Positions 19,670-34,833 of a stretch of DNA of 50,251 bases are shown here, in pieces (positions within the stretch are counted from its first letter, which is position 1; every line of letters begins with the position of its first letter). The position numbers were made by a program, and so were the translations under genes. The DNA is taken from the NCBI GenBank assembly GCA_043743145.1, contig JAYTXC010000067.1, positions 1-50,251 of the forward strand. Direction: 5' to 3'. The notes under the pieces are model-generated. The model had not been told where the DNA came from. It was given only the letters and a program-made list of their open reading frames with translations, and ran no database searches. The DNA is from Rhodospirillales bacterium. Its GTDB lineage: Bacteria; Vulcanimicrobiota; Vulcanimicrobiia; Vulcanimicrobiales; Vulcanimicrobiaceae.

Positions 19670-20594
19670 CCACGAGCGCACGGCCGCGATCGAGCGCGGC
19701 GCGCGCCAAGCGCTCGACGAGCGCGTCGAACGATATTCCGGCCGCCGCACAGACCTCGGGAAAGAGACTCGTCGGCGTCATGCCAGGCAGCGAATTGATC
19801 TCGAGAATATACGGCCGCCCCGTTGCCGTCACGATGAAATCGGTGCGCGAATAATCGCGCAAACCGAGCATGCGGTGCGTCGAGAGCGCGAGCATTTGCA
19901 GGCGATGCGCGAGGTCATCGTCGATGCGCGCAGGCGTTTCATGGCGGCTCCCGCCCGATGAATACTTCGCGTCGTAATCGTAAAATTCGGAGTTCTGCGG
20001 GATGATCTCGACGATGGGGAGCGCCGCGCCGAAGAGCACGCCGCAGCCGAATTCACGACCGGGCACGAATTCTTCTGCGAGAATCGTCGAGCGACTGATG
20101 GAGAGATCGAGCATCGCGCGCGACCATTCTTCGTGCGTGCGCACGATCGAGACACCCGTACTCGAACCTTCGGCGCGCGGCTTGACGACGAGCGGAAGAT
20201 TGAGCGATCCCGGCAAGAGCGGCAACGTGCCGCCATCGAAATCGAAGGTATCCCAGGCGGGCGTCGGAAGGCCCTCGGCCGAGAGTAACTTTTTGGTTAA
20301 GTGCTTGTCCATCGAGATCGCACACGACCGGAGATCGCTCCCCGTATAGGGCACGTGGAGCCAATCGAGCACGCCTTGAATCGTGCCGTCTTCGCCGCCC
20401 GCACCGTGGAGCGCGTTGAAGACGACATCGGGCTCGAGCTCGCCGATCGCACGCGCGAAGTTTGCATCGAAATCCAGCGTCCGAACGTCGTATCCCAAGC
20501 GCTCGAGTGCGGCTGCGATGCCGCGACCGCTCGCAATCGAGACCTCGCGCTCGGTACTGGGACCGCCCATCACGACCGCGACGCGCGCCTTCAT
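19659..20594 (-). CDS. ddl: D-alanine--D-alanine ligase
   Basis: Motifs VAVVMGGPSTEREVSIASG, HGAGGEDGTIQGVLD and EINSLPGMT. ATGA overlap with the murB stop. Confidence 0.92.
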   Translation of the reverse strand: MKARVAVVMGGPSTEREVSIASGRGIAAALERLGYDVRTLDFDANFARAIGELEPDVVFNALHGAGGEDGTIQGVLDWLHVPYTGSDLRSCAISMDKHLTKKLLSAEGLPTPAWDTFDFDGGTLPLLPGSLNLPLVVKPRAEGSSTGVSIVRTHEEWSRAMLDLSISRSTILAEEFVPGREFGCGVLFGAALPIVEIIPQNSEFYDYDAKYSSGGSRHETPARIDDDLAHRLQMLALSTHRMLGLRDYSRTDFIVTATGRPYILEINSLPGMTPTSLFPEVCAAAGISFDALVERLARAALDRGRALVDAS

Positions 20595-21538
20595 ACGAAC
20601 GCTCCCACGAAATGGACTTCGAGTTCGAGTTCGACACCGAAGCGTTCCGCAACCGAGCGTCGCACGCGCGCGAGCAACGCCGCCGTTTCGGCTGCCGTCG
20701 CACCACCGCGATTGACGATAAAATTCGCGTGCATCTCCGAGACCTCCGCGCCGCCTTCGCGCAACCCCTTGCAGCCCGCGGCCTCGATCAATCGGCCCGC
20801 TTTATCGCCCGACGGATTACGAAAACACGACCCGGCGCTCGGATACTGTAGTGGTTGTGAATTCTTGCGGCGAACGAGCCGTTTTTGCAGGACCTCGCGC
20901 ACCGTTGCGGGCTCGCCACGTTCGAAATGCAGCGTCGCATGCGTCACCACCGCGTCACGCGCGAGCGTCGTGTGGCGATAGAAATATTGCGGCGTAACCG
21001 CATGTGTCTCCGGCTTCGCGGGCGTCTGCACCGAGACGTCGCGCACGAACTCCCCGAACTCGCGGTCCGTGCCCGCGTTCATGCGTAAACTGCCACCGAC
21101 GCTTCCCGGAATTCCAGCGAGCGAATCGATGCCGATCGCTCCGAGCGACGCGCCTTGCGCGACGACGAGCGGGAGCGACGCCGACGCGCCCGCCACGATC
21201 GTTACGCCGTCGTCTTCGTTGCGAGCCTCGATGCGCGCGAATTCCCCCGCGAGCCGGATGACGATCCCGCGAATGCCGCCATCGCCGACGAGCAGATTCG
21301 ACCCGCTGCCGAGCACGAACCACGGCAACGTTCGCTTGAAAGCGAGGCGCAGAATCGTGGCGAGTTCGGCGCTCGTTTCGACGACGCACAATGCATCGGC
21401 CGGGCCGCCGATCTTCCAATACGTGTGCGGTGCGAGCGGCGCATCGAAGCTCGCGCGATCGCCGAGCGTCTGAGCGAGCAGCGTGCGGTCGGCATCGCAG
21501 AGGACGCTCGCGCGTGCGCAGATCTCCGTGAGACTCAT
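20591..21538 (-). CDS. murB: UDP-N-acetylenolpyruvoylglucosamine reductase
   Basis: Motifs HTYWKIGGPADAL, GSGSNLLV and CFRNPSG. ATGA overlap with the murC stop. Confidence 0.9.
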   Translation of the reverse strand: MSLTEICARASVLCDADRTLLAQTLGDRASFDAPLAPHTYWKIGGPADALCVVETSAELATILRLAFKRTLPWFVLGSGSNLLVGDGGIRGIVIRLAGEFARIEARNEDDGVTIVAGASASLPLVVAQGASLGAIGIDSLAGIPGSVGGSLRMNAGTDREFGEFVRDVSVQTPAKPETHAVTPQYFYRHTTLARDAVVTHATLHFERGEPATVREVLQKRLVRRKNSQPLQYPSAGSCFRNPSGDKAGRLIEAAGCKGLREGGAEVSEMHANFIVNRGGATAAETAALLARVRRSVAERFGVELELEVHFVGAFV

Positions 21539-22938
21539 GGCGCGCTCGCAGGAGCAACACGCGGTTCGATCGCGCGCGCGAGTCGCGCCGCAGCAGCCGT
21601 AATCGATCCCGCACCGAGCATGAGCACGAGCGCGCCCTGCGGTGCGTGCGCGAGCAACTCCGCCTCGAGATCCTCGACCTTCGCATACGCGACCTCGCAG
21701 CCGAGCCTCGCGAGCGGTGCGCCGATGGTCTTCGCATCGACGCCCGGAATCGGCGCTTCCGATGCGGCGTAAATGTCGGTGAGCACGACGCGATCGGCGC
21801 CACGGAGCGCGCGTGCGAAATCGTTTCCGAGATAGCGCGTGCGCGTATAGCGATGCGGTTGGAACGCGACGACGATCGGGCCGTCGAAATTCGCGCGTGC
21901 TGCCGCGATCGTCGCTTCGACGGCGGTTGGGTGATGCGCGTAATCGTCGACGACCGTCATCCGGTCGCCGCGCGTGAGAATTTCGAAGCGACGCCGCACG
22001 CCGCGAAATCCCGCGAGGGCGTTCGCGATCGTTTCGAACGGCACGCGCAGTTCGAGTCCGACGGCGATCGCGGCGAGCGCGTTTTCAATATTGATCGCAC
22101 CGGGCACGTCGAGAACGACCGTCCCTGCCGGCACGCCGCGCACGAGCACGTCAAACGTCGATCCAAAATCGGCATAGTACGGATGCGCGGCGCGGATATC
22201 GGCATCTTCAGCGAATCCAAACGTCGTGGTCGTTGCGGCGTGCGCGGTGCCGGCGAGCGCGGCCGCGCGCGGTTCGTCGGTCCCGATCACGAGCCGACCG
22301 TGTGCGGGCACGCGAGCGACAAACGTTTCGAATGCCGCAACGAGCTCGGGAAGATCGGCATCGCTCTCGATGTGATCGTTCTCGATATTCGTGACGATCG
22401 CGATCTCGGGATCGAGGCCGAGAAACGATCGATCCGACTCGTCGGCTTCGCTCACGAACCACACGCCCGACCCGTCACGGGCATTCGTTTTTGTATCGAC
22501 GCGTTCGCCGCCGACGACGACCGTTGGATCGCAGCCACCGCCTTCGAGGACGCGCGCGATCATCGCCGTGGTCGTCGTCTTCCCATGCGTTCCCGCAACC
22601 GCGATGCCGCGGCGTTGCGCCATGAGTTGCGCGAGAAGGGCACCGCGATGGAGAATCGGGATGCCGCGTTCGCGCGCGTCGAGCAGTTCGGGATTGTGGT
22701 CGTCGATCGCGGTGCTGATGACGATCGACGTCGCACCCGCGCAGTGACCGGCCGCATGACCGATCGCGATCTGCGCGCCTTCGGCGGCGAGCGCGTCGGT
22801 GAGCGTCGTTCGTCGATCCGACGAGCCACTTACCGTGACACCGCGCGCCAAGAGGATGCGAGCGAGCCCCGACATGCCGATGCCGCTAATGCCCACGAAA
22901 TGTACGCGGGCGCTGGCGTCGCCCGTCGGTATTCTCAC
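21535..22938 (-). CDS. murC: UDP-N-acetylmuramate--L-alanine ligase
   Basis: Motifs VHFVGISGIGMSGLA and GTHGKTTTT. The preferred start is GTG 22938, overlapping the murG stop (GTGA). The track start is 22965. Confidence 0.9.
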   Translation of the reverse strand: MRIPTGDASARVHFVGISGIGMSGLARILLARGVTVSGSSDRRTTLTDALAAEGAQIAIGHAAGHCAGATSIVISTAIDDHNPELLDARERGIPILHRGALLAQLMAQRRGIAVAGTHGKTTTTAMIARVLEGGGCDPTVVVGGERVDTKTNARDGSGVWFVSEADESDRSFLGLDPEIAIVTNIENDHIESDADLPELVAAFETFVARVPAHGRLVIGTDEPRAAALAGTAHAATTTTFGFAEDADIRAAHPYYADFGSTFDVLVRGVPAGTVVLDVPGAINIENALAAIAVGLELRVPFETIANALAGFRGVRRRFEILTRGDRMTVVDDYAHHPTAVEATIAAARANFDGPIVVAFQPHRYTRTRYLGNDFARALRGADRVVLTDIYAASEAPIPGVDAKTIGAPLARLGCEVAYAKVEDLEAELLAHAPQGALVLMLGAGSITAAAARLARAIEPRVAPASAP

Positions 22939-24056
22939 GAGGGGGCCGCTTTCGAAATCGACCACGCATTTACCCGTGCGACGATGGTCGTGCGTGGATC
23001 GACGGCCGAGGCGCGTTCCGCGGCCGCGCGCATCGCCGCAAGCGCCGTGGGCTCGAGCGCCGCCGCGAGTTCTGCCCGCAAACGCACCGCATCGAGGTCG
23101 CGATCGGCCACGACGCGCGCGCCACCGCCCGCCGCATACGCGCGGGCGTTGTGCGCTTGGTGATCGGCCGTCGCGAAGGGATAGGGCACCAAGAGCGCCG
23201 GCGTCGCGGTCGCCGCGAGTTCACCGAGGGTCGATGCGCCCGCGCGCGCCAGCACGAGGTCGGCCGCCGCATACGCGCTGCGCGGGTCGTCGAGATAGGC
23301 AAGGACCGTCGCATCCGCGCGGCCCGCAAGGCGACGCGCGAGCACGGCAAAATCGCGGTCCCCCGCAAGAACGAGCATATGTACTCCATCGGCGACGCCC
23401 GCCTCGATGTAACCTGCGACGGCTTCGTTGATGGAGCGCGCGCCCTGGCTGCCACCGATCACGACGACGATCGTCGCCGTAGCGGGCAGGCCGAGTGTCG
23501 CGCGCGCATCGGATTTCGCGAGCGGCCGTCGCATCGACGAACGCACCGGAATGCCGACGACGAACTCCCCTCGGCGGAGTGCGCGAGCACTCGGTGGGAT
23601 CGCATACCAAACCTCATCGACGAGCGGCGCGACGAGTCGGTTCGTCAAGCCCGCCGCCGCATTGGGTTCGAGCACCGCAATCCGCGCGCGCGAACGTCCG
23701 AGCGCGCGCACGAGCCGCATCGCCGCGACGACGGGAAGCGAAACGTAGCCGCCCGTCGCGATCACGATATCGGGTTGGAGCCGGTGCAAGACGCGTAGCG
23801 CATCGATCACGCCGAGCACGTTGGTCGCAAGCGTCCCCACGAGCGACAAGCTCATTTTCCGCGCGAGCGGCGCGGCACGCACCGTATACAACGGGAGTCC
23901 CGCAGCGGGGACGATTCGCGCTTCGAGGCCGCCACGCGTCCCGATGAAATTTACGGCGAACGGCGCGAACGCGGGTTCGGTTGCGAATGCCTCGGCGATC
24001 GCAAGTGCGGGGTACACATGGCCGCCGGTCCCGCCACCCGTGAGCACGAGACGCAC
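22935..24056 (-). CDS. murG: UDP-GlcNAc:undecaprenyl-PP-MurNAc-pentapeptide GlcNAc transferase
   Basis: The LTGGGTGGHVYPALA motif lies near the N-terminus. The preferred start is GTG 24056, 13 nt after the ftsW stop. The track start TTG 24119 would overlap ftsW by 50 nt. Confidence 0.88.
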   Translation of the reverse strand: MRLVLTGGGTGGHVYPALAIAEAFATEPAFAPFAVNFIGTRGGLEARIVPAAGLPLYTVRAAPLARKMSLSLVGTLATNVLGVIDALRVLHRLQPDIVIATGGYVSLPVVAAMRLVRALGRSRARIAVLEPNAAAGLTNRLVAPLVDEVWYAIPPSARALRRGEFVVGIPVRSSMRRPLAKSDARATLGLPATATIVVVIGGSQGARSINEAVAGYIEAGVADGVHMLVLAGDRDFAVLARRLAGRADATVLAYLDDPRSAYAAADLVLARAGASTLGELAATATPALLVPYPFATADHQAHNARAYAAGGGARVVADRDLDAVRLRAELAAALEPTALAAMRAAAERASAVDPRTTIVARVNAWSISKAAPS

Positions 24057-24069
24057 GAACGCCCGCGCG

Positions 24070-25233
24070 CTATCGCGCCGCGATGGGCGTGTACTCGTAC
24101 GGTCGGCGCACGTCGCCAACCGCGTATGCCGACTCGCGCGCGATGCGGGAGCGGCCGACGTTGACGATGAGCGCGACCGCGGTTAGCGACGTCACGAGCG
24201 ACGTGCCCCCAAACGAGATGAACGGCAACGGAACGCCCGTTACGGGCCACGACGACGAGACGACGCCGAGGTTGACGAACGCTTGAATCACGATGAGCGC
24301 CATGCACCCGATGCAGAGAAAAAACCCGAACCGATCGGGTGCGGCGAGCGCGATGCGCACCGCGCGATAGGCGAAGATCACGAAGAGTGCGACGATTGCG
24401 GCCATGCCCGCAAAGCCCGTCTCCTCACCGATGATCGAACCGATAAAATCGGTGTGCGCCTCAGGTAGCCAAAAGAATTTTTGGTGCGAGAAACCGAGCC
24501 CGACGCCGAACCAGCCACCGCTGCCGAGCGCCATCAACGACTGTACGATGTGAAAACCCTTATCTTGTGGATCCTTCCACGGATCCATAAACGCGACGAC
24601 GCGCGCGAGCTTGTACGGATCGTGGCGGATCAAGAGAATCGCGGGCGGCATGACGGCCGCAAAAATCATCAGCAGATGGACCACGCGCGCGCCCGCGACA
24701 AAAAAGAGTGTCGCCGCCGTAAACGCGAGCAGACTCGCGGTGCCGAAGTCGGGCTGTTTGATGACGAGCATCGCCATCACAGCCGTCACGAGTGCGAGCG
24801 GAAAGAGGCCGCGTACGAGCGATCTGATACGATCGCCTTTCGTCGCGAGCGCCGCCGAAAGATACAGGACCAAAGCGAGTTTCGCAAACTCCGATGGTTC
24901 GAATTGGATCGGGCCCACGCCGAGCCAACGGGATGCGCCGCCCGCAATCACGCCGACGTGCGGCACGAGCACGAGTGCGAGTGCGACGATGCTCGCGCCA
25001 AGCGCCCACGGCGCGACCACACGGAGCTTGCGGTAATCGATCCGATAGGCCACGTAGGCGACGGCGAGCGCGACGACGAGCCACATCATCTGCCGTTTGA
25101 GAAAGTATCCCGCATCGTGTTGCAGCGCGACCGCGTACGCACTCGACGCGCTGAAGATCATCACGAGACCGATCGTGACGAGCGCTGCGATCGCACCGAC
25201 GAGCACGGTATCGGGCGCCTCGCGTTTACCCAT
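24070..25233 (-). CDS. ftsW: FtsW/RodA/SpoVE-family peptidoglycan polymerase (division type by position)
   Basis: Polytopic membrane protein with LVMIFSASS and PEAHTDFIGSIIGEETG motifs. It lies between murD and murG. Start is ATG 25233 or GTG 25239. Confidence 0.88.
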   Translation of the reverse strand: MGKREAPDTVLVGAIAALVTIGLVMIFSASSAYAVALQHDAGYFLKRQMMWLVVALAVAYVAYRIDYRKLRVVAPWALGASIVALALVLVPHVGVIAGGASRWLGVGPIQFEPSEFAKLALVLYLSAALATKGDRIRSLVRGLFPLALVTAVMAMLVIKQPDFGTASLLAFTAATLFFVAGARVVHLLMIFAAVMPPAILLIRHDPYKLARVVAFMDPWKDPQDKGFHIVQSLMALGSGGWFGVGLGFSHQKFFWLPEAHTDFIGSIIGEETGFAGMAAIVALFVIFAYRAVRIALAAPDRFGFFLCIGCMALIVIQAFVNLGVVSSSWPVTGVPLPFISFGGTSLVTSLTAVALIVNVGRSRIARESAYAVGDVRRPYEYTPIAAR

Positions 25234-26623
25234 GCGCACCGAGCTCTACCGCAGCGGCCTGCGCGAAGGCGTCGCCGCGTGCTTCGGCCGAGGCGAACAT
25301 GTCGAACGACGCGCAGCCGGGCGAAAGAAGCACGACATCGCCCGGGGCCGCGATCGACCGCGCGACCGCGACGGCGTGCTCCATCGACGTTGCGCGTTGC
25401 GTCGGGACGTTGCCGATCACGGCCGCGATCTCATCCGCTGCTTCACCGATGAGTACGACGGCTTTGGCATGTTTTGCAATCGCGGAACCCATCGCGCGAA
25501 AATCCGTGCGTTTCGATTTTCCACCGGCGACGAGAACGATCGGTTGGTCGAACGATGCGAGCGCCGCGACCACGGAGCCCGGATTCGTCGATTTCGAATC
25601 GTCGACGAATGTGACGCCATCGGCAACTGCGACGCGCTGCAAGCGGTGCGGCAGCGCGACGAAATCACCGACTGCCGCCCGCAGTGCGGCCGGATCGAGA
25701 TCGGCTGCGAGACCGATCGCGAGCGCCGCGAGCACGTTTGCGACGTTGTGCGCGCCGAGCAACGGTATTTCCGAGACCGGCATGATCTCGATCGGACGCG
25801 GGTCGCCCGTCGGCGGCGCGTAGACGATGCGCCCTTGGCGGACGTAGATCGTCGCCGCGCGGTTCGGCGCCATCGCAAACCACGTCGCGCGCGCGTTGAG
25901 TCGCTTCGCCGATTCGCCCGCGCAAAGTTCGGCGACGATCGGGTCGTCGAGATTGCCGACGAACGTATCGGTCGCCGATTGATTCGCGAAGATGCGGAAT
26001 TTCGCTTCGCTATATTCATCCATCGAGTGGTAGCGATCGAGATGATCGGGTGAGAGATTGATGATCGCGGAGATTTTCGGTTTGAACGACCGGATCGATT
26101 CGAGCTGGAACGACGATACCTCCGCGATGACCCAGTCGCCCGCAGCGGCGACGAAGGTCTCGTTGATGAGAGCGTTTCCGATATTCCCGCCGACGTGCGT
26201 CGTCTTGCCCGCGCGGCGGAACATCGCACCGACGAGCGCCGTCGTCGTCGTCTTGCCTTTGGTACCCGTGATCGCGACCATCGGCGCCTTGCAGATTCGG
26301 TACGCGACCTCGATCTCGGAGTAGACCGAGATCCGTGCAGCCTGCACGCGTCGGACGAGATCGATGTTGAGCGGAACGCCGGGCGACACCACGCACGCCG
26401 TGAGTTGCGGCAACACGCGATCGATCTCGGCGGGATCGACGAACTCCACGGCATTCGCATCGAGTTCGGCAATCGTTTTCGCGAGCGCTTCGCGTGGCTT
26501 TTCGTCGGTCGCGAAGACGGTCGCGCCGCGCGCACGCAAGACCGCACAGCTCGCGATGCCGCTCCGACCGAGGCCGATCACGAGCACGCGTTCGCGCGGA
26601 TCGAAGGTCCCGGTAACGTTCAT
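25226..26623 (-). CDS. murD: UDP-N-acetylmuramoylalanine--D-glutamate ligase
   Basis: Motifs VLVIGLGRSGIA and TGTKGKTTTT. ATG 26623 overlaps the mraY stop (ATGA). The track start 26701 is an extension. Confidence 0.9.
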   Translation of the reverse strand: MNVTGTFDPRERVLVIGLGRSGIASCAVLRARGATVFATDEKPREALAKTIAELDANAVEFVDPAEIDRVLPQLTACVVSPGVPLNIDLVRRVQAARISVYSEIEVAYRICKAPMVAITGTKGKTTTTALVGAMFRRAGKTTHVGGNIGNALINETFVAAAGDWVIAEVSSFQLESIRSFKPKISAIINLSPDHLDRYHSMDEYSEAKFRIFANQSATDTFVGNLDDPIVAELCAGESAKRLNARATWFAMAPNRAATIYVRQGRIVYAPPTGDPRPIEIMPVSEIPLLGAHNVANVLAALAIGLAADLDPAALRAAVGDFVALPHRLQRVAVADGVTFVDDSKSTNPGSVVAALASFDQPIVLVAGGKSKRTDFRAMGSAIAKHAKAVVLIGEAADEIAAVIGNVPTQRATSMEHAVAVARSIAAPGDVVLLSPGCASFDMFASAEARGDAFAQAAAVELGAHG

Positions 26624-27609
26624 CGGACGATCGCCAATCCGACGAGCGAGAGGATCGCCGACGCGGTCCAGAAGCGCGCGGTGACTTTCGTCTCGGGCCA
26701 ACCGCCGAGTTCGAAATGATGGTGCAACGGGCTCATGCGAAATATCCGTTTGTGCGTGCGCTTAAAGTAAAGGACTTGAATGATAACCGAGAGCGCTTCG
26801 GCGACGAAGACGCCGCCGATGAGCGGGAGCAGAAGGTGCGTACCGGTTAAAACGACGCTTCCCGCAAGGACGCCTCCCAAAAGAAGCGCGCCCGTATCGC
26901 CCATGAACAGGCGTGCGGGGTGAACGTTGTAGACGAGGAAACTGCCGAGCGACGCCATCACGGCAACGTCGACGAACGCGACGCCGCGAGCACCCATCTG
27001 CCAACTGAAAAATGCAAGGACGGCGAGCGGCGGAAGCATCGTGCCGCCCGCGAGCCCATCGAGCCCATCGGTGAGGTTTACGGCGTGCGTCGTCGCGAGA
27101 ATGACGAGCAGGCCCAAGCCGAACCAAATCACATACGGCACGACGAGATGCGCGTTGCCCGCAGAGGCTGCGGTCGCGAAGATCGTGCCCGGCTCGAACG
27201 TCCCGTCGCGGCGCGCGCCGAATGTCGCGAGCGCGAGGAATGCGATGCCGACCGCGATCGTTGCCGCGAACTTCGAGCGCGGGCTCAGGCCCCGATTCTT
27301 GCCGCGGCGGATTGACGTGTAATCGTCGATGAATCCGACGAGCCCGCATCCGAGGCCGAGCACGGCGAGCGAGAAGGTCGCGAAGTCGGGATGGATGATC
27401 GCAGCGGCAACGAGCGCGATGACGAAGAGCACGCCGCCCATCGTGGGCGTGCCGCTCTTGATCGCATGCGTTTTCGGCGCGTCTTCGTAAGCGTGCTGTT
27501 TGAACGATACCCGGCGGAGCAGCTCGATCAGCGGCCGCACGACGATACTGCTCAAGCTCGCGACGATAACCGCGGTCCATACGAGCGAGTTGCTCGAAAA
27601 GACATTCAT
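26620..27609 (-). CDS. mraY: Phospho-N-acetylmuramoyl-pentapeptide transferase
   Basis: Polytopic membrane protein with motifs TPTMGG, NLTDGLDGLAGG, FMGDTGALLLGG and PLHHHFE. Confidence 0.92.
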   Translation of the reverse strand: MNVFSSNSLVWTAVIVASLSSIVVRPLIELLRRVSFKQHAYEDAPKTHAIKSGTPTMGGVLFVIALVAAAIIHPDFATFSLAVLGLGCGLVGFIDDYTSIRRGKNRGLSPRSKFAATIAVGIAFLALATFGARRDGTFEPGTIFATAASAGNAHLVVPYVIWFGLGLLVILATTHAVNLTDGLDGLAGGTMLPPLAVLAFFSWQMGARGVAFVDVAVMASLGSFLVYNVHPARLFMGDTGALLLGGVLAGSVVLTGTHLLLPLIGGVFVAEALSVIIQVLYFKRTHKRIFRMSPLHHHFELGGWPETKVTARFWTASAILSLVGLAIVR

Positions 27610-28355
27610 CCGCTACGGCCATGGAGCAACGGGCTCGATCCCACATCGCGCCACGCGAGTACGACGATCGGCGTCTGCTCGTCGCCGTTGCCGTGGGGAT
27701 TGTCGCGCAGCGACTCCTCGACATTGGCGCGGTGGACGCCCGGCGACGCACCGAGCACCTTCGCGATACCGAGATCGTTCGCATCGACGACGACCGCGTG
27801 CGCACCGATGCGCGTCGCAATCTCACTCGCCGCACCGTCGGGATTCTCGGGCCCGAGCACGATCTGCCGATCGAACGGCGGCAGCGTACCCGTGTATCCG
27901 TCGATGGCCGAAATCGCTTCGCCGAGAATCTCGTAGAAAACGCCGCGCTTCCCGAGCACGCGTCCGAACACGTGCGCGACGGCCGCATAGACGACACGCC
28001 ACGCACCGACGTCGTCGATCACGAGTTGCATCGATTCCGGTTGGTTCATCGTCGCGAGCGCACCCGCGCGCCGCGAGAGCACGTATGCGAGGCGCGTCGG
28101 GCGAATCGTTTCGGCGGCGATCATGCGATTTTGCGCGATCGCGACCGCGGTTTCCGAGATCGCGACGACGTCTCCGCCACGCACGACGCCACGCACGGCA
28201 TCGGCGACGATGCCCGCGAGATCGTCGCCCGCGCGTACGAGCGGCGTGCGAATGGGAATCGCAGCGAAGCGATTGCCGAACGCTTCGCGCTTGCGCGTGG
28301 GATCCGAGCGTCCGATCGTTGCCGGCCGTTGCACGAGTTCAGGCATGTCGTGCAT
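27606..28355 (-). CDS. CofE-like (F420-0:gamma-glutamyl ligase fold) protein inserted between murF and mraY
   Basis: ORF track 27606..28451. The motif order IPIRTPLVRAGDDLAGIV / GDVVAISETAVAIAQNRM / LPPFD..PENPDGAASEIA / AVVVDANDLG / NPHGNGDEQTPIVVL follows my memory of archaeal CofE (PLIKEGDDLAELI / GDVLVV.STVISKAEGR / LPP.DPDGSA / ITDTNG / GEGGDGIP.VVVRG). The stop overlaps the mraY ATG (ATGA). Candidate starts ATG 28355 and 28346 lie within the last codons of murF. Confidence 0.5.
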   Translation of the reverse strand: MHDMPELVQRPATIGRSDPTRKREAFGNRFAAIPIRTPLVRAGDDLAGIVADAVRGVVRGGDVVAISETAVAIAQNRMIAAETIRPTRLAYVLSRRAGALATMNQPESMQLVIDDVGAWRVVYAAVAHVFGRVLGKRGVFYEILGEAISAIDGYTGTLPPFDRQIVLGPENPDGAASEIATRIGAHAVVVDANDLGIAKVLGASPGVHRANVEESLRDNPHGNGDEQTPIVVLAWRDVGSSPLLHGRSG

Positions 28356-29799
28356 CCCCGTTCGCGCGCGAGGCGCGCAGACCATCGACGATCTCTTCAA
28401 ACCGATAACGACGCGACGCTTTGAGCAAGATGCAGTCGCCTGGGCGTGCATGAGCGTCGAGCCACGTCACGGCTTCGGCGTTGCTCGCGAACGCGACGAT
28501 GCGGTCGGCCGGAAATCCCGCCTCCCGCAAGCCGCGCGCGAGATCGCTTGCGAAATCGCCACCGACGAGCACGTACGCGATCGTCGCACTCGCGACCGAG
28601 GCACCGACGCGCGCGTGCATCGCGGGTGCGTCGGCGCCGAGCTCCGCCATGCTGCCGAGGACGGCGATGCGACGCGTCGCAGATTCCACCTCGAACGACG
28701 CGATCGTCGCGAGCGTCCCGTCCATCGAGGCGTTGTAAGCATCGTACACGAGCGCGAGTGTCCCGAGCGTGATGCGCTCGTACCGGCCCTCGGGCAGATC
28801 TGCGTCGCGCAGCGCGTCCGCGATCTTCGCGGGTGCGATGCCGAGCGCGACGGCCGCGGCCGCCGCGGCCGCGACATTGCGCAAGTTGTGCTCGCCCGCA
28901 ACGGCGACATGCGTCTCCACGCTCGCGCCCGCTCGATCGCCCGCGATCACGACGAGTCGCTCGCGCCCCACGAGCGCGACCGTCGTCTCCGACGCTCTTC
29001 CCGTTCCTGCGATCTCGCTTGCTGCATCGGCCGCGTAGAAATACGTGCGCGGTCGCCCCGCTCGCGCGTCGCGCTCGGCTGTTGCGGCGTCGTCGCCCCT
29101 TGCGTCGTCGTCCGTGATACCGCGATCGCTCGGGCGCAAGGGCACGACCGCGCGGGCGCCCGTTGCGAAGATGCCATACTTCGTTTCGCGCAATCGCTCG
29201 CGCGAACCGAAAATTTCCAGATGAGCGTCCCCGATGTTCGTGATGACCGCGACGTCGGGGCGCGCGGCGCGTGCGAGCGGCGCGATCTCGCCGAAATGGC
29301 GCGCGCCGAACTCGACGACGATGTATGCCGCGTCGTCAGAAGCACCGAGCAAGAGCTTCGCGACGCCGATTTCGTTATTTTCATTCGCATGTGTCGCCAC
29401 GACCGGGCCCGACTGAACGCGTTGGAGCAATGCTGCGAGCACGTGTTTGGTCGTCGTCTTCCCCGCACTCCCGGTGATCGCGACGACGCGCGCACGCGAA
29501 GCCGATCGCGCGACGCCGGCGATCGCGAGATAGGCCACAGTCGTGTCGTCGACAACGAGTGCGCCAACGCCCGGCGGCACCGCGCGCGCGTCATCGACCA
29601 CAACCCCACTCGCACCGCACGCGAGCGCTTCGCCCACGAAGGCGTGGCCATCGAACGTCGCGCCACGGAGTGCGACGTAGAGGTCGCCCGGGACGAGCGT
29701 TCGTGTATCGGTGGAAAAGCGCGCGGCGATCGGCAACGCATCGGGTGCGAGGACGCGCGCGCTCGAGGCGGCGACGGCGGAGGTGAGCGGGATCTTCAC
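28339..29799 (-). CDS. murF: UDP-MurNAc-tripeptide--D-alanyl-D-alanine ligase
   Basis: Motifs STDTRTLVPGDLYVALRG..DGH and ITGSAGKTTTK. The GTG start overlaps the murE stop (GTGA). Confidence 0.9.
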   Translation of the reverse strand: MKIPLTSAVAASSARVLAPDALPIAARFSTDTRTLVPGDLYVALRGATFDGHAFVGEALACGASGVVVDDARAVPPGVGALVVDDTTVAYLAIAGVARSASRARVVAITGSAGKTTTKHVLAALLQRVQSGPVVATHANENNEIGVAKLLLGASDDAAYIVVEFGARHFGEIAPLARAARPDVAVITNIGDAHLEIFGSRERLRETKYGIFATGARAVVPLRPSDRGITDDDARGDDAATAERDARAGRPRTYFYAADAASEIAGTGRASETTVALVGRERLVVIAGDRAGASVETHVAVAGEHNLRNVAAAAAAAVALGIAPAKIADALRDADLPEGRYERITLGTLALVYDAYNASMDGTLATIASFEVESATRRIAVLGSMAELGADAPAMHARVGASVASATIAYVLVGGDFASDLARGLREAGFPADRIVAFASNAEAVTWLDAHARPGDCILLKASRRYRFEEIVDGLRASRANGDARHA

Positions 29800-31256
29800 G
29801 CGGGTTCGCGTGCGGCGAGTGCCGACCGCACTTCATCGCGATCGTCGAAATGGTTCGTTACCGTACCGATGATCTGGTAGGTTTCATGCCCCTTCCCCGC
29901 GACGACGACGACGTCGCCCGGTTCGGCATCGAGGATCGCGCGCCGAATCGCGGCACGGCGATCGACGAGTGCGACGACTTCACGCAAGTCGTCGATCCCG
30001 CCGAGAATCTCGTCGATGATCTCTTGGGGATCTTCCGAGCGCGGGTTGTCGCTCGTAACGAAGACGCGGTCTGCACGTGACCGCGCGATCGCGCCCATGA
30101 GCGGACGCTTGCCGCGATCGCGATCGCCGCCGCATCCGAAGACGACCGCCAGTTCGCCACGTGCCGTTTCGCGTGCGGCCCGCAAGATGACATCGAGCGC
30201 ATCGGGCGTGTGCGCGTAATCGACGAGCACGTCGATCCCGCCACCAGCAAGGTGTTCCATGCGACCGGGGACGCGTTCGAACGCGGCCATCGCGCGCGCC
30301 GAATCGTCGTCAGCGACGCCGTGCGCGCGCGCGATACCGAGCGCGGCGAGTGCGTTTGCAATATTGAATCGCCCCGGCAAGCGTAGCGCGAACCGCCGCG
30401 CATCGACGTTGAAGCTACTGCCGTCGGCGCGCAGCGCGATATCGCGCGCGACGAGCGTCGCGTCCGAATCGAGTGCGTACGTATCGACCGTCTTGCCGGC
30501 CGCGCGCAGCTCGCCCGCCCACGCGCGGCCGAGCGGGTCGTCGCTATTGAGGATCGCGATCGGCGCGCGCTCGAAGAGGCTTCGCTTCGCCGCCGCATAC
30601 GCTTCGAACGTCCCGTGATAATCGAGGTGATCGCGCGTCACGTTCGTCAGCACCGCGACCGCGAAGTCGACGTCGGCGACGCGATCTTGTGCGAGCGCGT
30701 GCGAACTCGCTTCCATCGCGACGGCCTGCGCGCCACGATCGCGCATTTCCCCGAGCAGCGACTGAAGTTCCAGTGCGAGCGGCGTCGTATTTTCGAGCGA
30801 CCACATCGCGCCACCGAATCGCGCCCCGAGCGTCCCGATGCGCCCCGTCGGAACGCCGCCCGCATCGAGTATCGCCGCCGCGAGATGCGTTACGGTCGTC
30901 TTGCCGTTCGTTCCCGTCACGCCCGTCACGCGCAACGTCCGGGACGGGTTGCCGTAAAAGAGCGCGGCCAAGCGCGAGAGCGCGCGACGCGTGTCGTCGA
31001 CAACGACGATCGCGCCCGGCACGGCGAGCGTCGAGAGATCGAATCCACCATCGACGACGACGCCGATCGCGCCCGATGCAAAGGCGCTCGCAACGAACGC
31101 ATGCCCATCGACGCGTTCGCCGCGCAGCGCGACGAACAGTGTGCCGGGCACGATGGCGCGCGAATCGTGTGCGATCGCGCGAACCGTGATACCGAGGTCG
31201 CCCGTCGCGCGCGGATCGTCGAGCGCGGCGACGAGCGAGGCGAGCGTTGGATTCAC
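29796..31256 (-). CDS. murE: UDP-MurNAc-L-Ala-D-Glu--2,6-diaminopimelate (or L-Lys) ligase
   Basis: This is the C-terminal 487 aa of ORF 29796..31853. Motifs HDSRAIVPGTLFVALRG..DGH, VTGTNGKTTV and DNPRSEDP. GTG 31256 overlaps the ftsI stop (GTGA). The upstream 199 aa of the listed ORF are Arg-rich and overlap ftsI. Confidence 0.9.
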   Translation of the reverse strand: MNPTLASLVAALDDPRATGDLGITVRAIAHDSRAIVPGTLFVALRGERVDGHAFVASAFASGAIGVVVDGGFDLSTLAVPGAIVVVDDTRRALSRLAALFYGNPSRTLRVTGVTGTNGKTTVTHLAAAILDAGGVPTGRIGTLGARFGGAMWSLENTTPLALELQSLLGEMRDRGAQAVAMEASSHALAQDRVADVDFAVAVLTNVTRDHLDYHGTFEAYAAAKRSLFERAPIAILNSDDPLGRAWAGELRAAGKTVDTYALDSDATLVARDIALRADGSSFNVDARRFALRLPGRFNIANALAALGIARAHGVADDDSARAMAAFERVPGRMEHLAGGGIDVLVDYAHTPDALDVILRAARETARGELAVVFGCGGDRDRGKRPLMGAIARSRADRVFVTSDNPRSEDPQEIIDEILGGIDDLREVVALVDRRAAIRRAILDAEPGDVVVVAGKGHETYQIIGTVTNHFDDRDEVRSALAAREPA

Positions 31257-33088
31257 GTGCGTTGTTTCGGCGGACGCACGACGGGCACAGGCTGCGCTGC
31301 AAGTGGAAGCGGTGCGCGTACGCGCGCGCGCGCGGGGATCCGAGCGGGCATCACGCCCGCGTGCATCATCGCGAGCTTCGCGATTTCGGCGAAGGCCGGC
31401 GCCGCGACGACGCCGCCATAGATCGCGCCATGCGGTCGTGCGATCTTTACGAGAATCACGAATTTCGGCGATTCGGCGGGCACGAATCCGACGAACGACC
31501 CGATATATGCACCCGAAACGTAGCCGCCATTTTCGGCGACTTGCGCGGTTCCCGTTTTTCCCGCCGTCGTATATCCCGGTACGATCGCCGACGGATTCCC
31601 CGTCCCGCGCATGACGACCGCGCGCAGATAGCGGCGCAACGTCGCAGCCGTTTTCACCGAGATCGCGCGGCGTTCGATTTCCGGCGCGTAACGATAAACC
31701 GTGCGCCCGTCGCCATCGAGCAACGCCGAAAGGATACGCGGACGCATGAGGAGCCCGCCGTTGGCGATTGCCGCGTACGCACGTGCGAGCGCGATCGGCG
31801 TCGTCGAGATGCCGTGGCCGAACGAGATCGTCGGCAGCGACGTCTCGCTCCACTCAGCGATCGGCGGCACGATCCCGGGGTTCTCGCCCGGCAAACCGAC
31901 GCGCGTGTAATCGCCGAATCCGAACTTACGCATCGTCGCGTACATCGTGCGTCGCCCGATCGTCAATCCGACTTCCGCGGCGCCGACGTTATGCGAATAG
32001 GCGATGATATCTTCGAGCGTTTCCGAGTTTGCGGAGCCGGCGAGAAAACCGTCTTCGGCGTTGTGGATCGTGCGGCCACCGATCGTGAGTTGGTCCCTCG
32101 CCGGAAACTGCGTTTGGGTCGTTACTTTGCCGCTATCGAGTGCGGCTGCTGCCGTTATCAGCTTGAAGGTCGAGCCGGGTTCGTAGGCGTCCATCACGAC
32201 GCGATCGCGCCGCGCGTCGGGGCTCGCGCTCGCATAGTGGCGCACGTCGTAGTCGGGTACGTTCGCAAGTGCGAGCACCTCGCCCGACTTTGGGTCCAGG
32301 ACGAGCGCGCAGCCGCTCTCTGCGTTCCATTTGTGGACCGCATCGCGCAAGATGCGTTCGACGTTGTATTGCAGATACGAATCGATCGTGAGCTCGATCG
32401 AATTTCCGGGCTTTGCGGCAACGACGACGCGAGGCTTTGCGAAGGGAATCGCGCGACCGAATTGGTCGGCCTCGAGCGTCATCTTCCCGGGCGCACCACG
32501 CAAGAGTCCGTCGAAGGCATATTCCACCCCCTCGAGTCCGTCTTCATCGAAGCCCGTAAAGCCGATGACGCTCGACGCGAGTCGCCCCGCGGGTACGAAG
32601 CGCGTTCCCGTCGACTCGGGGACGATGCTGATGCCGGGGAGCGCGAGCTTGGCAATCGCATCCGACGCGTCACGCGAGACTTTGTGGCCGATCTGTACGT
32701 ACGACGACGCACCGGCAAGCGACGCGCGCAAACCACGGGCGGAACGTTCGCGCAGAATACCTGCGAGCGCACGCGCGGTGCCGTCGATATCTTTCACGTC
32801 GCCCGTCGTCGCGTACACGCTTTGCGACGGGAGCGAGCGCGCGAGCGCGGTTCCGTCGCGATCGAAAATCGAGCCGCGGTGGGCGGCATAATTGACGGTT
32901 TCGAGACGTTGCTCGTACGCGCGCGCGGCGAGTTTGGGACCATCGTGAACCTGCACGATGTAGAGGCGAATGCCGAGTGCGATTCCGGTCGAGAAGAGCA
33001 GATAGAAAACGATCTTCGCACGCAGAGCGCTCGCTCTTACCGCCGCTTCGGCGGGACGTCGCGGCGCGCGGTTCGCGCGGTCGCTCAC
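31253..33088 (-). CDS. ftsI: Division-type class B penicillin-binding protein (transpeptidase)
   Basis: TM anchor IVFYLLFSTGIALGI. Transpeptidase motifs STFK (EPGSTFK), SHN (YSHN) and KTGT (AGKTGTA). The GTG start overlaps the ftsL stop. Confidence 0.9.
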   Translation of the reverse strand: MSDRANRAPRRPAEAAVRASALRAKIVFYLLFSTGIALGIRLYIVQVHDGPKLAARAYEQRLETVNYAAHRGSIFDRDGTALARSLPSQSVYATTGDVKDIDGTARALAGILRERSARGLRASLAGASSYVQIGHKVSRDASDAIAKLALPGISIVPESTGTRFVPAGRLASSVIGFTGFDEDGLEGVEYAFDGLLRGAPGKMTLEADQFGRAIPFAKPRVVVAAKPGNSIELTIDSYLQYNVERILRDAVHKWNAESGCALVLDPKSGEVLALANVPDYDVRHYASASPDARRDRVVMDAYEPGSTFKLITAAAALDSGKVTTQTQFPARDQLTIGGRTIHNAEDGFLAGSANSETLEDIIAYSHNVGAAEVGLTIGRRTMYATMRKFGFGDYTRVGLPGENPGIVPPIAEWSETSLPTISFGHGISTTPIALARAYAAIANGGLLMRPRILSALLDGDGRTVYRYAPEIERRAISVKTAATLRRYLRAVVMRGTGNPSAIVPGYTTAGKTGTAQVAENGGYVSGAYIGSFVGFVPAESPKFVILVKIARPHGAIYGGVVAAPAFAEIAKLAMMHAGVMPARIPARARVRAPLPLAAQPVPVVRPPKQRT

Positions 33089-33507
33089 TTCAACCAGGGA
33101 AGGAAGGCGAGCCCGTGCGGTACGGTCTGAGGACGTTCGGTGGGCAAAGTAATTTGCGCGAACGTTTGCGGTTCGTGCATCCCCAAGCTCGCGGCGAGGC
33201 GCGCGAGCCGTTCGCGCGATGCGAGGCGCGCGATCGTATCGTCCATGCGCGACGACTCGTCGAGCAAACGTGTCTTCTCACGCGTCGCGCGCGAAAGGTC
33301 GTAATTCATGCGGGTGACGTTCGCCATGAGCGCGAGATAGACGACGATCGCGAGCGTGAGCACGGAGGCCGTCCCGAGAATCTTTACCAGACTTGCGTAG
33401 CCGCGCGCGCGCGTTCGATTGCGGCGTTGGTTACCCGCGGTGCGGCCGGAGCGGGTTCCCGTGCGCGGCGGAACGAGTTCTTCGTAGGGTAACGGTTGTG
33501 CGATCAC
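33085..33507 (-). CDS. ftsL: Cell division protein FtsL-like (bitopic, coiled coil)
   Basis: Basic N-terminus, a single TM (LGTASVLTLAIVVYLALMA), then a short helical region. It occupies the canonical position between rsmH and ftsI. The GTG start overlaps the rsmH stop. Confidence 0.7.
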   Translation of the reverse strand: MIAQPLPYEELVPPRTGTRSGRTAGNQRRNRTRARGYASLVKILGTASVLTLAIVVYLALMANVTRMNYDLSRATREKTRLLDESSRMDDTIARLASRERLARLAASLGMHEPQTFAQITLPTERPQTVPHGLAFLPWLK

Positions 33508-34421
33508 GGGAGGCGCTCCGCGACGCGAAGTTTTGCCGACCGCGATCGCGGGTTGCGGCTCTGTTCGTCGTCGCCGGGAAGGAGTGGTTTGCGGGTGATG
33601 GCGCGGACGCGGTCGTCTTCGCGGAACCGCACCTTGACGATGCGATCTTCGAGGGAGTGGAAGCTGATCGCCGCGATGCGGCCGCCGGGTGCGGTGCGCG
33701 CGATCGCGGCATCGAGGCCGCGCTCGATCGACCCGAGTTCGTCGTTGACGGCGATGCGCAACGCCTGAAAGGTGCGCGTTGCCGGGTGGATGCGCTCGCG
33801 CTTGCCGCGCACGTGCATCACGCCCGCGATCATGCGCGCGAACTCCGATGTCGTTTTCGGAAGCGTCCCGCGTTCGCGCGCGCCGACGATCTTGCGCGCG
33901 ATGCGGCGCGCCGCGCGTTCGTCGCCGTATTTGAAGATGATATCGGCGAGCTCGGTCTCGTCGCTCGTTTCGAGAAGATCGTAGGCGGTCTGGCCGTCGC
34001 TCGGATTCATGCGCATGTCGAGTGGCCCTTCGCGAGCGAGCGAGAAGCCGCGCTCGGCGCGATCGAATTGCATCGACGAGACGCCGAAGTCGAAGAGCAC
34101 GCCATCGACGAGCGCGATGCCGAGATCGTCGAGTGCCGCGCCGAGTTCGGCGAAGTTCGTGCGGACGAGCGTGACCGATTCGGCGAGATCCGGGGGCACT
34201 TCGGCGGTCGGGTCGCGATCGAAGGCGACGACGCGTCCGCCGCGCGCGACGATCGCGCGCGTGTGGCCGCCCGCGCCGAAGGTGCCGTCGACGTACACGC
34301 CGTCCGCACGGACGCCGAGTGCATCGAGAGATTCTGCCAGGAGGACAGGGACGTGCGACGCGGCTGCAACTTCATCATCGTTAATAGAGGCCGAGCTCCG
34401 TGGTAAAGGCAGCGGCTTCAT
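33504..34421 (-). CDS. rsmH: 16S rRNA (cytosine1402-N4)-methyltransferase
   Basis: Motifs HVPVLL, DGTFGAGGH and SFHSLEDR. ATG 34421 overlaps the mraZ 3' end by 41 nt. Confidence 0.9.
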   Translation of the reverse strand: MKPLPLPRSSASINDDEVAAASHVPVLLAESLDALGVRADGVYVDGTFGAGGHTRAIVARGGRVVAFDRDPTAEVPPDLAESVTLVRTNFAELGAALDDLGIALVDGVLFDFGVSSMQFDRAERGFSLAREGPLDMRMNPSDGQTAYDLLETSDETELADIIFKYGDERAARRIARKIVGARERGTLPKTTSEFARMIAGVMHVRGKRERIHPATRTFQALRIAVNDELGSIERGLDAAIARTAPGGRIAAISFHSLEDRIVKVRFREDDRVRAITRKPLLPGDDEQSRNPRSRSAKLRVAERLP

Positions 34422-34824
34422 CCGCGCTCGGGCTCGCCGTGCTCAGCCGCTCCTTGGCCCAGATCTCCACGCGCGTCAGCGATCCGATCGAGACCGCATC
34501 ACGTTCGATCGCGGCATAGATGCGAAGCGGACCCGGTATGAGCAGGCGGCCCTGCGCGTCGAGCGTTGCCTCGTCGGTGTGGGCAAAGAGATGTCGGACG
34601 AAGCGCCGATAGCGGTCGTCTTTGACGGGCGCGGCCTCGAGGCGCTCGCAGAACGCGTCCCACGTGGCCTGCGGGTAGAGCGCGAGGCATGGTTCGGGCT
34701 CCGCGATCGTTACGATGAACTTCGCGCCGAGTCGTTCGCGGAAGCGCGCGGGGACGACAAGCCGGCTCTTGTCATCAAGAGCATGTTCGGCACGACCCGT
34801 AAAACGCGGAACATCGCGAGCCAG
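34381..34824 (-). CDS. mraZ: Transcriptional regulator MraZ (start codon uncertain; CTG 34824 favoured)
   Basis: Two MraZ half-domains are present (FTGRAEHALDDKSRLVVPARFRERL and THTDEATLDAQGRLLIPGPLR). The ORF-track start TTG 34896 coincides with the -35 box of the promoter. GGAGG (34832-34836) lies 7 nt upstream of in-frame CTG 34824. In-frame GTG 34848 lies inside the operator repeats. ATG 34814 is out of frame. Confidence 0.8.
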   Translation of the reverse strand: MARDVPRFTGRAEHALDDKSRLVVPARFRERLGAKFIVTIAEPEPCLALYPQATWDAFCERLEAAPVKDDRYRRFVRHLFAHTDEATLDAQGRLLIPGPLRIYAAIERDAVSIGSLTRVEIWAKERLSTASPSADEAAAFTTELGLY

Positions 34825-34833
34825 GGAAAGACC

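Follow-up and report, generated by a model that had tools for sequence, protein, structure and literature searches.

All steps of the cytoplasmic peptidoglycan pathway are considered to be known: MurA to MurF, then MraY and MurG. The stem-peptide modifications that we know of are made by Mur-ligase-like, AsnB-like, ATP-grasp or Fem-type enzymes. A separate amide-forming ligase is the F420-0:gamma-glutamyl ligase CofE, represented here by AfCofE of Archaeoglobus fulgidus (AF2256). The 2007 work of Nocek is reported to describe D109, D150/T151 and E208 as the acidic metal-binding residues of AfCofE. A domain-swapped beta-hairpin of CofE makes critical F420 contacts, F92 stacks on the F420 ring, and the G153-C155 face also contacts F420 (PMC10861534). 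We analysed a stretch of 50,251 nucleotides (hereafter the window) in which a gene predicted to encode a CofE-like fold, gene X, lies in a cluster of peptidoglycan genes. The host phylum is Eremiobacterota (Vulcanimicrobiota), a dominant but barely cultured phylum of soil and cryosphere, and the relatives of the X locus are found in the class Eremiobacteria.

Gene X at the murF-mraY junction

A first-pass annotation of the window had described an ORF wedged between murF and mraY and apparently co-translated with them. This arrangement was confirmed (Table 1). X opens with an ATG and encodes 249 aa followed by a stop codon; its TGA (27606-27608) shares an ATGA with the start codon of mraY (27607-27609), and its start lies inside murF. 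A second in-frame ATG at 28346 (MPELV..., 246 aa) is preceded by an SD-like GGGGA at a distance of 9 nt and is as good a candidate for the start as the ATG at 28355, or a better one. The overlap with murF is 8 nt from the former and 17 nt from the latter. The murE gene of the same dcw cluster carries the DNPR motif of the mDAP type; the cluster is not followed by ftsQAZ.

Table 1. Features of the X locus (positions in the window)
Feature	Position	Strand	Basis
Gene X, predicted CofE/FbiB-N (PF01996) fold, almost certainly a non-F420 subfamily	27606..28355	-	ORF, Pfam, AF2/Foldseek, third-position bias
murF-end / X-start overlap	28339..28355	-	ORF coordinates
X stop / mraY start ATGA overlap	27606..27609	-	ORF coordinates
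murF, UDP-MurNAc-tripeptide:D-Ala-D-Ala ligase, directly upstream of X	28339..29799	-	TIGR01143, 320.7 bits vs 288.6
mraY, phospho-MurNAc-pentapeptide translocase, directly downstream of X	26620..27609	-	TIGR00445, 263.8 bits vs 192
dcw cluster: mraZ, rsmH, ftsL, ftsI/PBP, murE, murF, X, mraY, murD, ftsW, murG, murC, murB, ddl	19659..34896	-	

X is a genuine gene and not a chance ORF. A homology search with X returned 2050 homologous clusters, mismatches to six relatives fell 158, 120 and 499 times on codon positions 1, 2 and 3 of the X frame, and the gene order was repeated in 80 species-level genomes. A crude GC3-based gene caller picked instead an antisense ORF of 267 aa (27621-28424, plus strand). 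We rejected it as a shadow ORF because homology, Pfam and codon-position substitutions all favour the minus-strand frame.

We then compared the locus with its relatives. X was identified in 366 species genomes. Among the best 80 species genomes, the order murF-X-mraY was present wherever the flanks reached far enough (~78/80), so the junction is not unique to this assembly. Of 74 loci, 44 had a murF/X overlap of 4 nt and a further 7 one of 8 nt, and X overlapped mraY by 4 nt at 53 of 77 loci. X thus appears to be translationally coupled to both neighbours, with a placement fixed in its relatives rather than an assembly quirk. X is also better conserved than either neighbour: identity across relatives was 67.7% for X, versus 49.8 for MurF and 55.3 for MraY (MurE, 58.6; MurD, 62.3). 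Purifying selection on X is very strong.

The fold of X and its distance from CofE

The first-pass annotation had assigned X to the CofE fold on the basis of six motifs, all of which occur in the X translation. The assignment stands. Pfam F420_ligase (PF01996) matched X with 57 bits (gathering score 25, E 2.5e-15), over profile positions 2-136 of 218 only. When an AF2 model of X (pLDDT 80.7) was searched against the PDB with Foldseek, the only matches were the AfCofE entries 2PHN, 7ULD and 2G9I (E 7e-9 to 6e-8, TM 0.52-0.56, including one with E 7e-9 and TM 0.55). The X-type domain of a distant relative, P0138 (model pLDDT 91.4), again matched AfCofE only, and hhalign aligned X with AfCofE over up to 195 columns at a probability of 91-94%. 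On these models, X has the CofE fold. Mur_ligase N, M and C domains (PF01225, PF08245, PF02875) were absent from X whereas MurC, D, E and F of the same window all matched them; any likeness of X to Mur ligases would be mechanistic and not by descent.

X belongs to a family that has no curated model and that numbers, by exhaustive phmmer, 753 or more clusters at 50% identity. Among 150 diverse representatives, D62, D152, D191, N193, N219-P-x-G and T228-P229 were conserved at 90% or more. The family signature, GD...(S/A)E(T/S)xxAIxQGR, FYRxAG...IDDxxGTxPPYD, VDANDLG and NPxGNxxEQTP, was kept in three family alignments (A2, A3, A4) and is carried in full by the window protein, which also has a basic, conserved N-terminal extension (G15-R16 ... 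R23-x-P25-F26). Oscillospiraceae, among them the cultured Youxingia wuxianensis, have many members of the family, which also occurs in Spirochaetia, Bacillota and the green alga Tetraselmis. Several database records call X orthologues 'coenzyme F420-0:L-glutamate ligase'. Nothing relevant emerged when we searched the literature for links between CofE-like/PF01996 proteins and peptidoglycan, the dcw cluster or Eremiobacterota, and the subfamily to which X seems to belong has no published description that we could find.

Does X make F420? X scored far below the cut-offs of the CofE equivalog models (TIGR01916, 37.9 against 180.65; NF009809, 39.1 against 274; NF009810, 22.8 against 304), and its distant relatives reached 20-29 bits. 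About 28 aligned positions, lying between AfCofE residues ~164 and 197, are deleted in X, the model of which runs from strand 198-203 straight into helix 209-216. The deleted stretch is probably the F420-contacting beta-hairpin of CofE. The segment that holds F92 in AfCofE is replaced by three helices (helices 106-150). To our knowledge, Oscillospiraceae and the green alga belong to lineages that are taken to lack F420. A complete F420 pathway with X as its sole cofE is unlikely given the failure of the equivalog models, the presumed loss of the hairpin and of F92, and the abundance of the family in presumably F420-free taxa. X is almost certainly neither a CofE equivalog nor a cofactor F420 gene. 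As the first-pass annotation had observed, no other F420 gene accompanies X: cofG/H or fbiC, cofC/fbiD and cofD/fbiA are all missing from the 50 kb window. A PNPOx-like ORF at 46637-47278 was considered as an F420-dependent enzyme and set aside, its closest model being an FMN-type PPOX, below threshold. A literature search for F420 pathway genes in Eremiobacterota found nothing.

X D152 aligned with AfCofE D109 in both hhalign runs; AfCofE D150 fell on D191 in one run and N193 in the other, and T151 on A192 or D194. The invariant D/N-D cluster of X (D191, N193, D194) lies at D150-T151. The S-K-x-E-G-R motif of AfCofE and FbiB (S44-K45-x-E47-G-R49) reads A72-I73-A74-Q75-N76-R77 in X and AIAQ-(N/G)-R family-wide, with loss of its Lys and Glu, and AfCofE E208 aligns with N223. 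The nucleotide chemistry of X may therefore be altered or absent. The FbiB sequence that we used also has no Glu at 208 but apparently a Lys, which makes the role given to E208 look unreliable. The sole check on that sequence was a match to AfCofE at E 1e-37; the AfCofE sequence was taken from the PDB alignment obtained with the FbiB N-domain as query. A 72-aa AfCofE fragment used as query for true CofE sequences returned two short fragments only.

A possible peptidoglycan-precursor ligase and its rivals

We tentatively propose, at somewhat less than an even chance, that X is a nucleotide-dependent amide ligase of the CofE/FbiB-N fold that acts on a peptidoglycan precursor in the Eremiobacteria operon. 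We infer its ligase activity, nucleotide, substrate and product. In outline, a cytoplasmic enzyme of this fold would have been recruited into the precursor operon of the class Eremiobacteria, and the codon overlaps at both junctions would match its synthesis to that of MurF and MraY. By homology to CofE, X would most likely be a dimer with a metal-nucleotide site, at which a substrate carboxylate would be phosphorylated to an acyl-phosphate; attack by an incoming amine (candidates are ammonia, an amino acid or a polyamine) would then yield an amide bond, by the same chemistry as in the unrelated Mur ligases. The most likely substrate would be UDP-MurNAc-pentapeptide as made by MurF, or else lipid I/II on the inner side of the membrane. 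Of the stem peptide, a carboxylate that is still free would be the likely target, either the D-iGlu alpha-COOH or the mDAP epsilon-COOH. The isolate paper on Eremiobacterota that we consulted does not report the peptidoglycan composition of the phylum.

With a little less confidence, we extend this proposal: X could be an unrecognised cytoplasmic precursor step, in which a ligase of non-Mur fold derivatises a stem-peptide carboxylate between MurF and MraY throughout Eremiobacteria, and forms in the wider family could perform related wall-peptide ligations. Those forms, predicted to be cytoplasmic, membrane-tethered, or fused to amidase or AsnB domains, would occur in Clostridia, Spirochaetes, Actinobacteria and algal plastids. 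A candidate reaction is the attachment of a polyamine or amino acid to D-Glu, for which no gene is known.

The wider family has links to the cell envelope. X-domain fusions to Amidase_3 (MurNAc-L-Ala amidase) formed 6 clusters at 50% identity and fusions to an AsnB-type amidotransferase 7. The Amidase_3-X proteins showed no N-terminal hydrophobic signal by inspection, and their genes adjoin a SpoVB/MurJ-like flippase, or a D-aminopeptidase M55 together with a second amidase. The fused AsnB domains gave generic TIGR01536 scores; like the deacetylase partners, they are of a generic kind and not peptidoglycan-specific. In membrane-anchored relatives, K+R counts around the helix were 1 in the N-flank and 73 in the C-flank. 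By the positive-inside rule, the X domain should face the cytoplasm, the side of the membrane on which lipid I and II arise; an extracytoplasmic placement, which would have told against NTP chemistry, was ruled out by the same counts. The Amidase_3 and AsnB fusions and the tethered cytoplasmic forms may be read as circumstantial support for a precursor role. The commonest fusion partners, TPR repeats and an Ig-like sandwich, are functionally uninformative, as is the N-terminal domain of a ~400-aa class (a generic Ig-like sandwich, adaptin-ear, ApaG or TMEM106B-like). MurF-X (P0124) and X-MraY (P0135) fusion proteins, one small cluster each, could be frameshift artefacts of the overlapping genes and were given no weight.

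The same survey bears on a different reading, which we consider somewhat less likely than the main proposal: X could be a CofE-type acyl-phosphate or phosphoryl-transfer enzyme acting on another envelope-related or small-molecule substrate. Candidates are a polyprenyl or lipid-phosphate carrier and a fatty acid, as well as a precursor of a secondary cell-wall polymer and a metabolite destined for glutamylation. X would then sit in the dcw cluster only for growth co-regulation. At the loci inspected outside Eremiobacteria, no relative lay in a dcw cluster. Neighbourhoods varied and included diverse envelope genes (GtrA-like, MBOAT+DHHW, NAGPA, MurJ-like), as this reading would have it; it also draws on the many relatives tethered to the cytoplasmic membrane face and on one-off fusions to PlsY, a CDP-alcohol phosphatidyltransferase, GNAT, an M20 peptidase and a PgaB/IcaB-like deacetylase. 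However, the only recurrent catalytic partners of the domain are the peptidoglycan amidase and the amidotransferase, and in Eremiobacteria X lies precisely where the gene for the enzyme completing the nucleotide precursor meets the gene for the enzyme using it up, with overlapping codons kept class-wide.

Alternatively, X might be a non-catalytic adaptor or regulator that binds a nucleotide or the precursor and links MurF with MraY; it could, for instance, pass UDP-MurNAc-pentapeptide on to the membrane step, or sense how much GTP or precursor is present. The missing Lys and Glu of S-K-x-E-G-R and the Asn opposite E208 speak for this reading, the conserved basic extension of X could be an interaction peptide, and stoichiometric, translationally coupled expression fits a partner in a complex. 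We nevertheless find this improbable: the invariant residues are of the active-site type (Asp, Asn, Gly/Pro loops, including the putative equivalents of CofE D109 and D150) and are kept from Eremiobacteria to Clostridia and algae, and the fusion partners of the domain in other phyla are enzymes other than MurF and MraY.

That X is the organism's own CofE, adding the gamma-glutamyl tail to F420-0 from an incidental dcw position, is very improbable indeed: the above-threshold Pfam match and the names of several orthologue records speak for it, but both CofE equivalog models (TIGR01916 and NF009809) were missed by 140-235 bits, the putative F420-covering hairpin is gone and the F92 segment has turned to helices, close relatives are plentiful in Oscillospiraceae of the gut and are also present in a green alga (presumed F420-free), the 50 kb around it offers no F420 gene, and the coupling to murF and mraY is conserved.

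Comparison with known ligases

If X does act on the precursor as we propose, a new enzyme fold would be added to the peptidoglycan pathway, and an undescribed wall chemistry would be predicted for Eremiobacterota. The proposal would also provide the first functional handle on the whole family, which currently goes under the wrong name of an F420-0 ligase in presumably F420-free organisms. That label inflates the F420 pathway completeness deduced in metagenomic surveys.

The closest system is AfCofE (PDB 2PHN, 2G9I, 7ULD), the sole PDB match to X. The two proteins have in common the fold and, near the N-terminus, the motifs P-x-x-x-GDDL and GD-V-x-x-x-S/C-x-T, together with what appear to be the equivalent of Asp109 (D152) and the acidic cluster at D150. 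They are only 16-17% identical, however, and X has invariant loops of its own (IDGYTGTLPP and NPHGNGDEQTP) and a genomic home between murF and mraY, not in an F420 gene set. [quoted passage not shown] Unlike FbiB, X has no fused nitroreductase-like C-terminal domain, and it shows the same motif losses as against CofE.

Mur ligases and their relatives (MurC-F, Mpl, MurT, FPGS) would share with X the proposed chemistry, that is, NTP-dependent carboxylate activation followed by amine attack, and they share its operon and pathway context, although their fold is unrelated. A parallel between CofE and MurD has been pointed out (PMC10861534). MurT/GatD provides a precedent for a change to a stem-peptide carboxylate after MurF; it differs in that MurT works on lipid II with a separate glutaminase, and no glutaminase gene adjoins X in Eremiobacteria. 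Finally, the AsnB1/LtsA-type amidotransferases, which amidate mDAP, are of the broad AsnB type found fused to the X domain. These fusions suggest a pathway in common, with both partners perhaps acting on carboxylates, whereas AsnB1/LtsA enzymes have a different fold from X and activate their substrate by adenylation.

A conserved gene between murF and mraY

The window (G+C 63.5%) carries a complete dcw cluster, with every gene on the minus strand, in the order mraZ, rsmH, ftsL, ftsI, murE, murF, X, mraY, murD, ftsW, murG, murC, murB and ddl, where X denotes the CofE-like gene. The murE product has a DNPR motif and is thus of the mDAP type. The cluster ends at ddl, with no ftsQ, ftsA or ftsZ after it in the window; beyond lie a PAS-SpoIIE-HATPase gene, two citrate synthase genes and hisH/hisA. 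The LptF/G, Lnt and TonB-dependent receptor genes of the window indicate a diderm envelope. By the names of its database hits, the organism falls in Eremiobacterota/Vulcanimicrobiota (Vulcanimicrobiaceae, Baltobacteraceae).

Coordinates of X, its neighbours and other ORFs of the window
Feature	Position	Strand	Remarks
hisH/hisA	13171-14528		adjoin the citrate synthase paralogues
Citrate synthase paralogues	14532-15893 and 16487-17701	-	Pfam 455 and 408 bits; ~600 nt apart
PAS-SpoIIE(PP2C)-HATPase_c_2 protein	17708-19750		first gene past ddl; longest ORF overlaps ddl end
dcw cluster	19659-34896	-	
mraY	26620-27609	-	downstream of X; TIGR00445, 263.8 bits
X	27606-28355	-	ATG 28355 to TGA 27606-27608; 249 aa
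Shadow ORF	27621-28424	opposite to X	rejected
X residues 1-30	28266-28355	-	basic extension
murF	28339-29799	-	upstream of X; TIGR01143, 320.7 bits
murE ORF	29796-31853	-	685 aa from GTG
917-aa ORF	36584-39337	+	directly after LptF/LptG permease gene
PNPOx-like split-barrel ORF	46637-47278	+	rejected as evidence of F420 use

The stop codon of X and the start codon of mraY overlap as ATGA. X begins 17 nt inside murF at the first ATG, or 8 nt inside it at an in-frame ATG at 28346 (MPELV...); the latter, preceded at 9 nt by a GGGGA, could be the genuine start. Mismatches between X and six relatives numbered 158, 120 and 499 at codon positions 1, 2 and 3, and 2050 homologous protein clusters were found; on these two grounds the predicted reading frame is real. 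The motifs quoted in the first-pass annotation all occur in its translation. An opposite-strand ORF favoured by a crude GC3 gene caller was rejected as a shadow of this minus-strand frame.

Scanning one genome per GTDB species, we found 366 genomes with an X relative. The best 80 of these 366, nearly all labelled Eremiobacterota or Vulcanimicrobiota, were searched by tblastn with the MurF and MraY of the window, and murF-X-mraY was present at every locus with long enough flanks. The X stop overlapped the mraY start by 4 nt at 53 of 77 loci, and the murF stop overlapped the X start by 4 nt at 44 and by 8 nt at 7 of 74. Two large contigs with independently called genes showed the same arrangement. 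Mean identity to the window proteins in these genomes was highest for X (67.7%; MurD 62.3%, MurE 58.6%, MraY 55.3%, MurF 49.8%), making it the most constrained protein of the stretch. X is under strong purifying selection and is co-translated with MurF and MraY throughout one bacterial class.

Several MAGs (L005, L007, L010, L014, L023, L042, L055, L057) labelled Rhodospirillales, Alphaproteobacteria, Janthinobacterium, Acidiferrales, Limnocylindria, Verrucomicrobiia or Binatia carry an Eremiobacterial murF-X-mraY locus at 63-93% identity, probably through mis-binned contigs or wrong taxonomy. The dcw cluster of OY969808.1, a 4.54 Mb Eremiobacterota chromosome (L002, 10443-11498), has a second insertion, a DUF2332 gene between ftsW and murG, that is absent from the window. 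The murE ORF of the window can be extended ~200 codons 5' of the Mur-ligase domains; the extended ORF runs into the end of ftsI, and the added stretch is rich in arginine and appears to be non-coding, the real start probably lying near VNPTLASL. The 917-aa ORF had no Pfam or NCBIfam match.

The fold of X

Pfam F420_ligase matched X with 57 bits (gathering score 25), but the match is confined to the first 136 of the profile's 218 positions. A sequence search of the PDB gave weak matches to AfCofE, the Archaeoglobus fulgidus F420-0:gamma-glutamyl ligase (E about 1e-4), confined to X residues 33-105. An AlphaFold2 model of X (pLDDT 80.7, pTM 0.79) retrieved AfCofE entries only (E 7e-9 to 6e-8, TM 0.52-0.56, 16-17% identity), the next PDB structure having an E of 1.8, and profile-profile alignment paired X with AfCofE at 91-94% probability over up to 195 columns. 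X and CofE have in common the N-terminal PxxxGDDL and GDVxxxS/C-x-T motifs; D152 of X aligns with AfCofE D109, and its invariant D191-A-N193-D194 cluster falls at D150-T151.

Other CofE features differ in X. The S44-K45-x-E47-G-R49 of CofE and of FbiB, the mycobacterial ligase, becomes A-I-A-Q-N-R, AfCofE E208 aligns with N223, and three helices (residues 106-150) take the place of the CofE beta segment with F92, the residue that stacks on the F420 ring. The FbiB sequence used in the alignment was validated by its match to AfCofE only, and the ligand-residue roles in CofE are assumed. X also lacks about 28 aligned positions found at ~164-197 of AfCofE, and in the model strand 198-203 leads directly into helix 209-216. 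The AfCofE sequence was taken from a PDB alignment, and its numbering fits the residues named in PMC10861534 (F92, G153-C155). The domain-swapped hairpin of CofE makes critical F420 contacts (PMC10861534), and we infer that it is the stretch deleted in X. Confidence in the model is lowest at two loops, 155-159 and 222-224. They correspond to GYTGT and GNG, invariant in the family, and are plausibly mobile loops of the active site.

Before the CofE-like core lies the basic extension, in which G15, R16, R23, P25 and F26 are nearly invariant across Eremiobacteria. One possible role is binding to a partner or to the membrane, in place of the transmembrane anchor seen in distant relatives.

The wider family

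In an exhaustive phmmer search (E <= 1e-3), 1.84 billion representatives yielded 753 X-family clusters at 50% identity, with the signature GD...SE(T/S)xxAIxQGR, FYRxAG..IDDxxGTxPPYD, VDANDLG and NPxGNxxEQTP. No NCBIfam model reached its cut-off on X or the tested relatives, and our literature search found no publication on this subfamily. The CofE-like subfamily to which X belongs is large and uncurated, and databases misname it coenzyme F420-0:L-glutamate ligase. Named hosts are Oscillospiraceae and Ruminococcaceae, including the cultured Youxingia wuxianensis and a complete Oscillospiraceae genome; others are Bacillota, Spirochaetia, Acidimicrobiia, Candidatus Xenobia and the green alga Tetraselmis. 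Outside Eremiobacteria, the neighbours of X relatives vary, and none of the neighbourhoods examined had a dcw setting.

Among 86 long representatives, the most numerous class combines an N-terminal transmembrane helix, a ~150-aa domain (a generic Ig-like sandwich) and X, in that order. In this class, the 15 residues before the helix hold one Lys+Arg versus 73 in the 15 after it; thus, the X domain lies in the cytoplasm, anchored at the membrane's inner face. X is also joined to TPR (about 11), AsnB-type glutamine amidotransferase/synthetase (7) and Amidase_3, a MurNAc-L-Ala amidase (6), and once each to PlsY, CDP-alcohol phosphatidyltransferase, adenylate kinase, M20 peptidase, GNAT, HD and a PgaB/IcaB-like deacetylase. 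The Amidase_3-X fusions have no signal peptide; a SpoVB/MurJ-like flippase gene adjoins one, and genes for a D-aminopeptidase (M55) and a second amidase adjoin another. The family is recurrently and physically linked to peptidoglycan amidase, amidotransferases and the cytoplasmic membrane face.

Eremiobacterial metagenomes also encode apparent MurF-X (736 aa) and X-MraY (414 and 461 aa) fusions (P0124, P0135, P0129), which may be real or may be indel or frameshift artefacts at the 4-nt gene overlaps. In Tetraselmis striata (P0137 and P0279, EukProt), the Ig-like domain and X follow a long Arg/Ser-rich extension that replaces the transmembrane helix and looks like an organelle transit peptide.

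Candidate functions of X

Our leading reading, to which we give somewhat less than an even chance, is that X is a CofE-type ligase acting on the MurF product or lipid I/II, substrates suggested by gene position. The CofE mechanism that serves as template has been described (PMC10861534, PMC8498797). By homology, X would be a dimer, and at its two-metal nucleotide site a substrate carboxylate would become an acyl-phosphate open to amine attack. Only two free carboxylates are expected to be modifiable without blocking cross-linking, the D-iGlu alpha-COOH and the mDAP epsilon-COOH, and either could be the target. Attachment of a polyamine or amino acid to D-Glu is speculation; the papers we consulted on peptidoglycan carrying polyamines do not assign the attachment step to a gene.

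The same chemistry could instead serve another envelope or small-molecule substrate, with the gene position reflecting growth co-regulation; we consider this somewhat less likely. The lost S-K-x-E motif and the conserved basic N-terminal peptide suggest a further possibility, a non-catalytic adaptor or sensor linking MurF and MraY, which is more doubtful still.

A genuine F420 CofE is highly improbable. The NCBIfam CofE equivalog models score X at 38-39 bits against cut-offs of 180-274, and X is not in that group, because three of the defining features tested were absent from it. The 50 kb yielded no F420 biosynthesis gene, as the first-pass annotation had observed, and no F420-dependent gene was found there. 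The PNPOx-like ORF has as its nearest model the FMN-dependent MSMEG_1061-type PPOX (46 bits, cut-off 170). F420 production is not known in many lineages carrying the family. X is a cytoplasmic CofE-fold protein distinct from F420 CofE.

X has none of the Mur ligase domains, and the acyl-phosphate chemistry proposed for it parallels that of MurD. The ligase we favour would thus work like CofE and, by analogy, like the Mur ligases and MurT.
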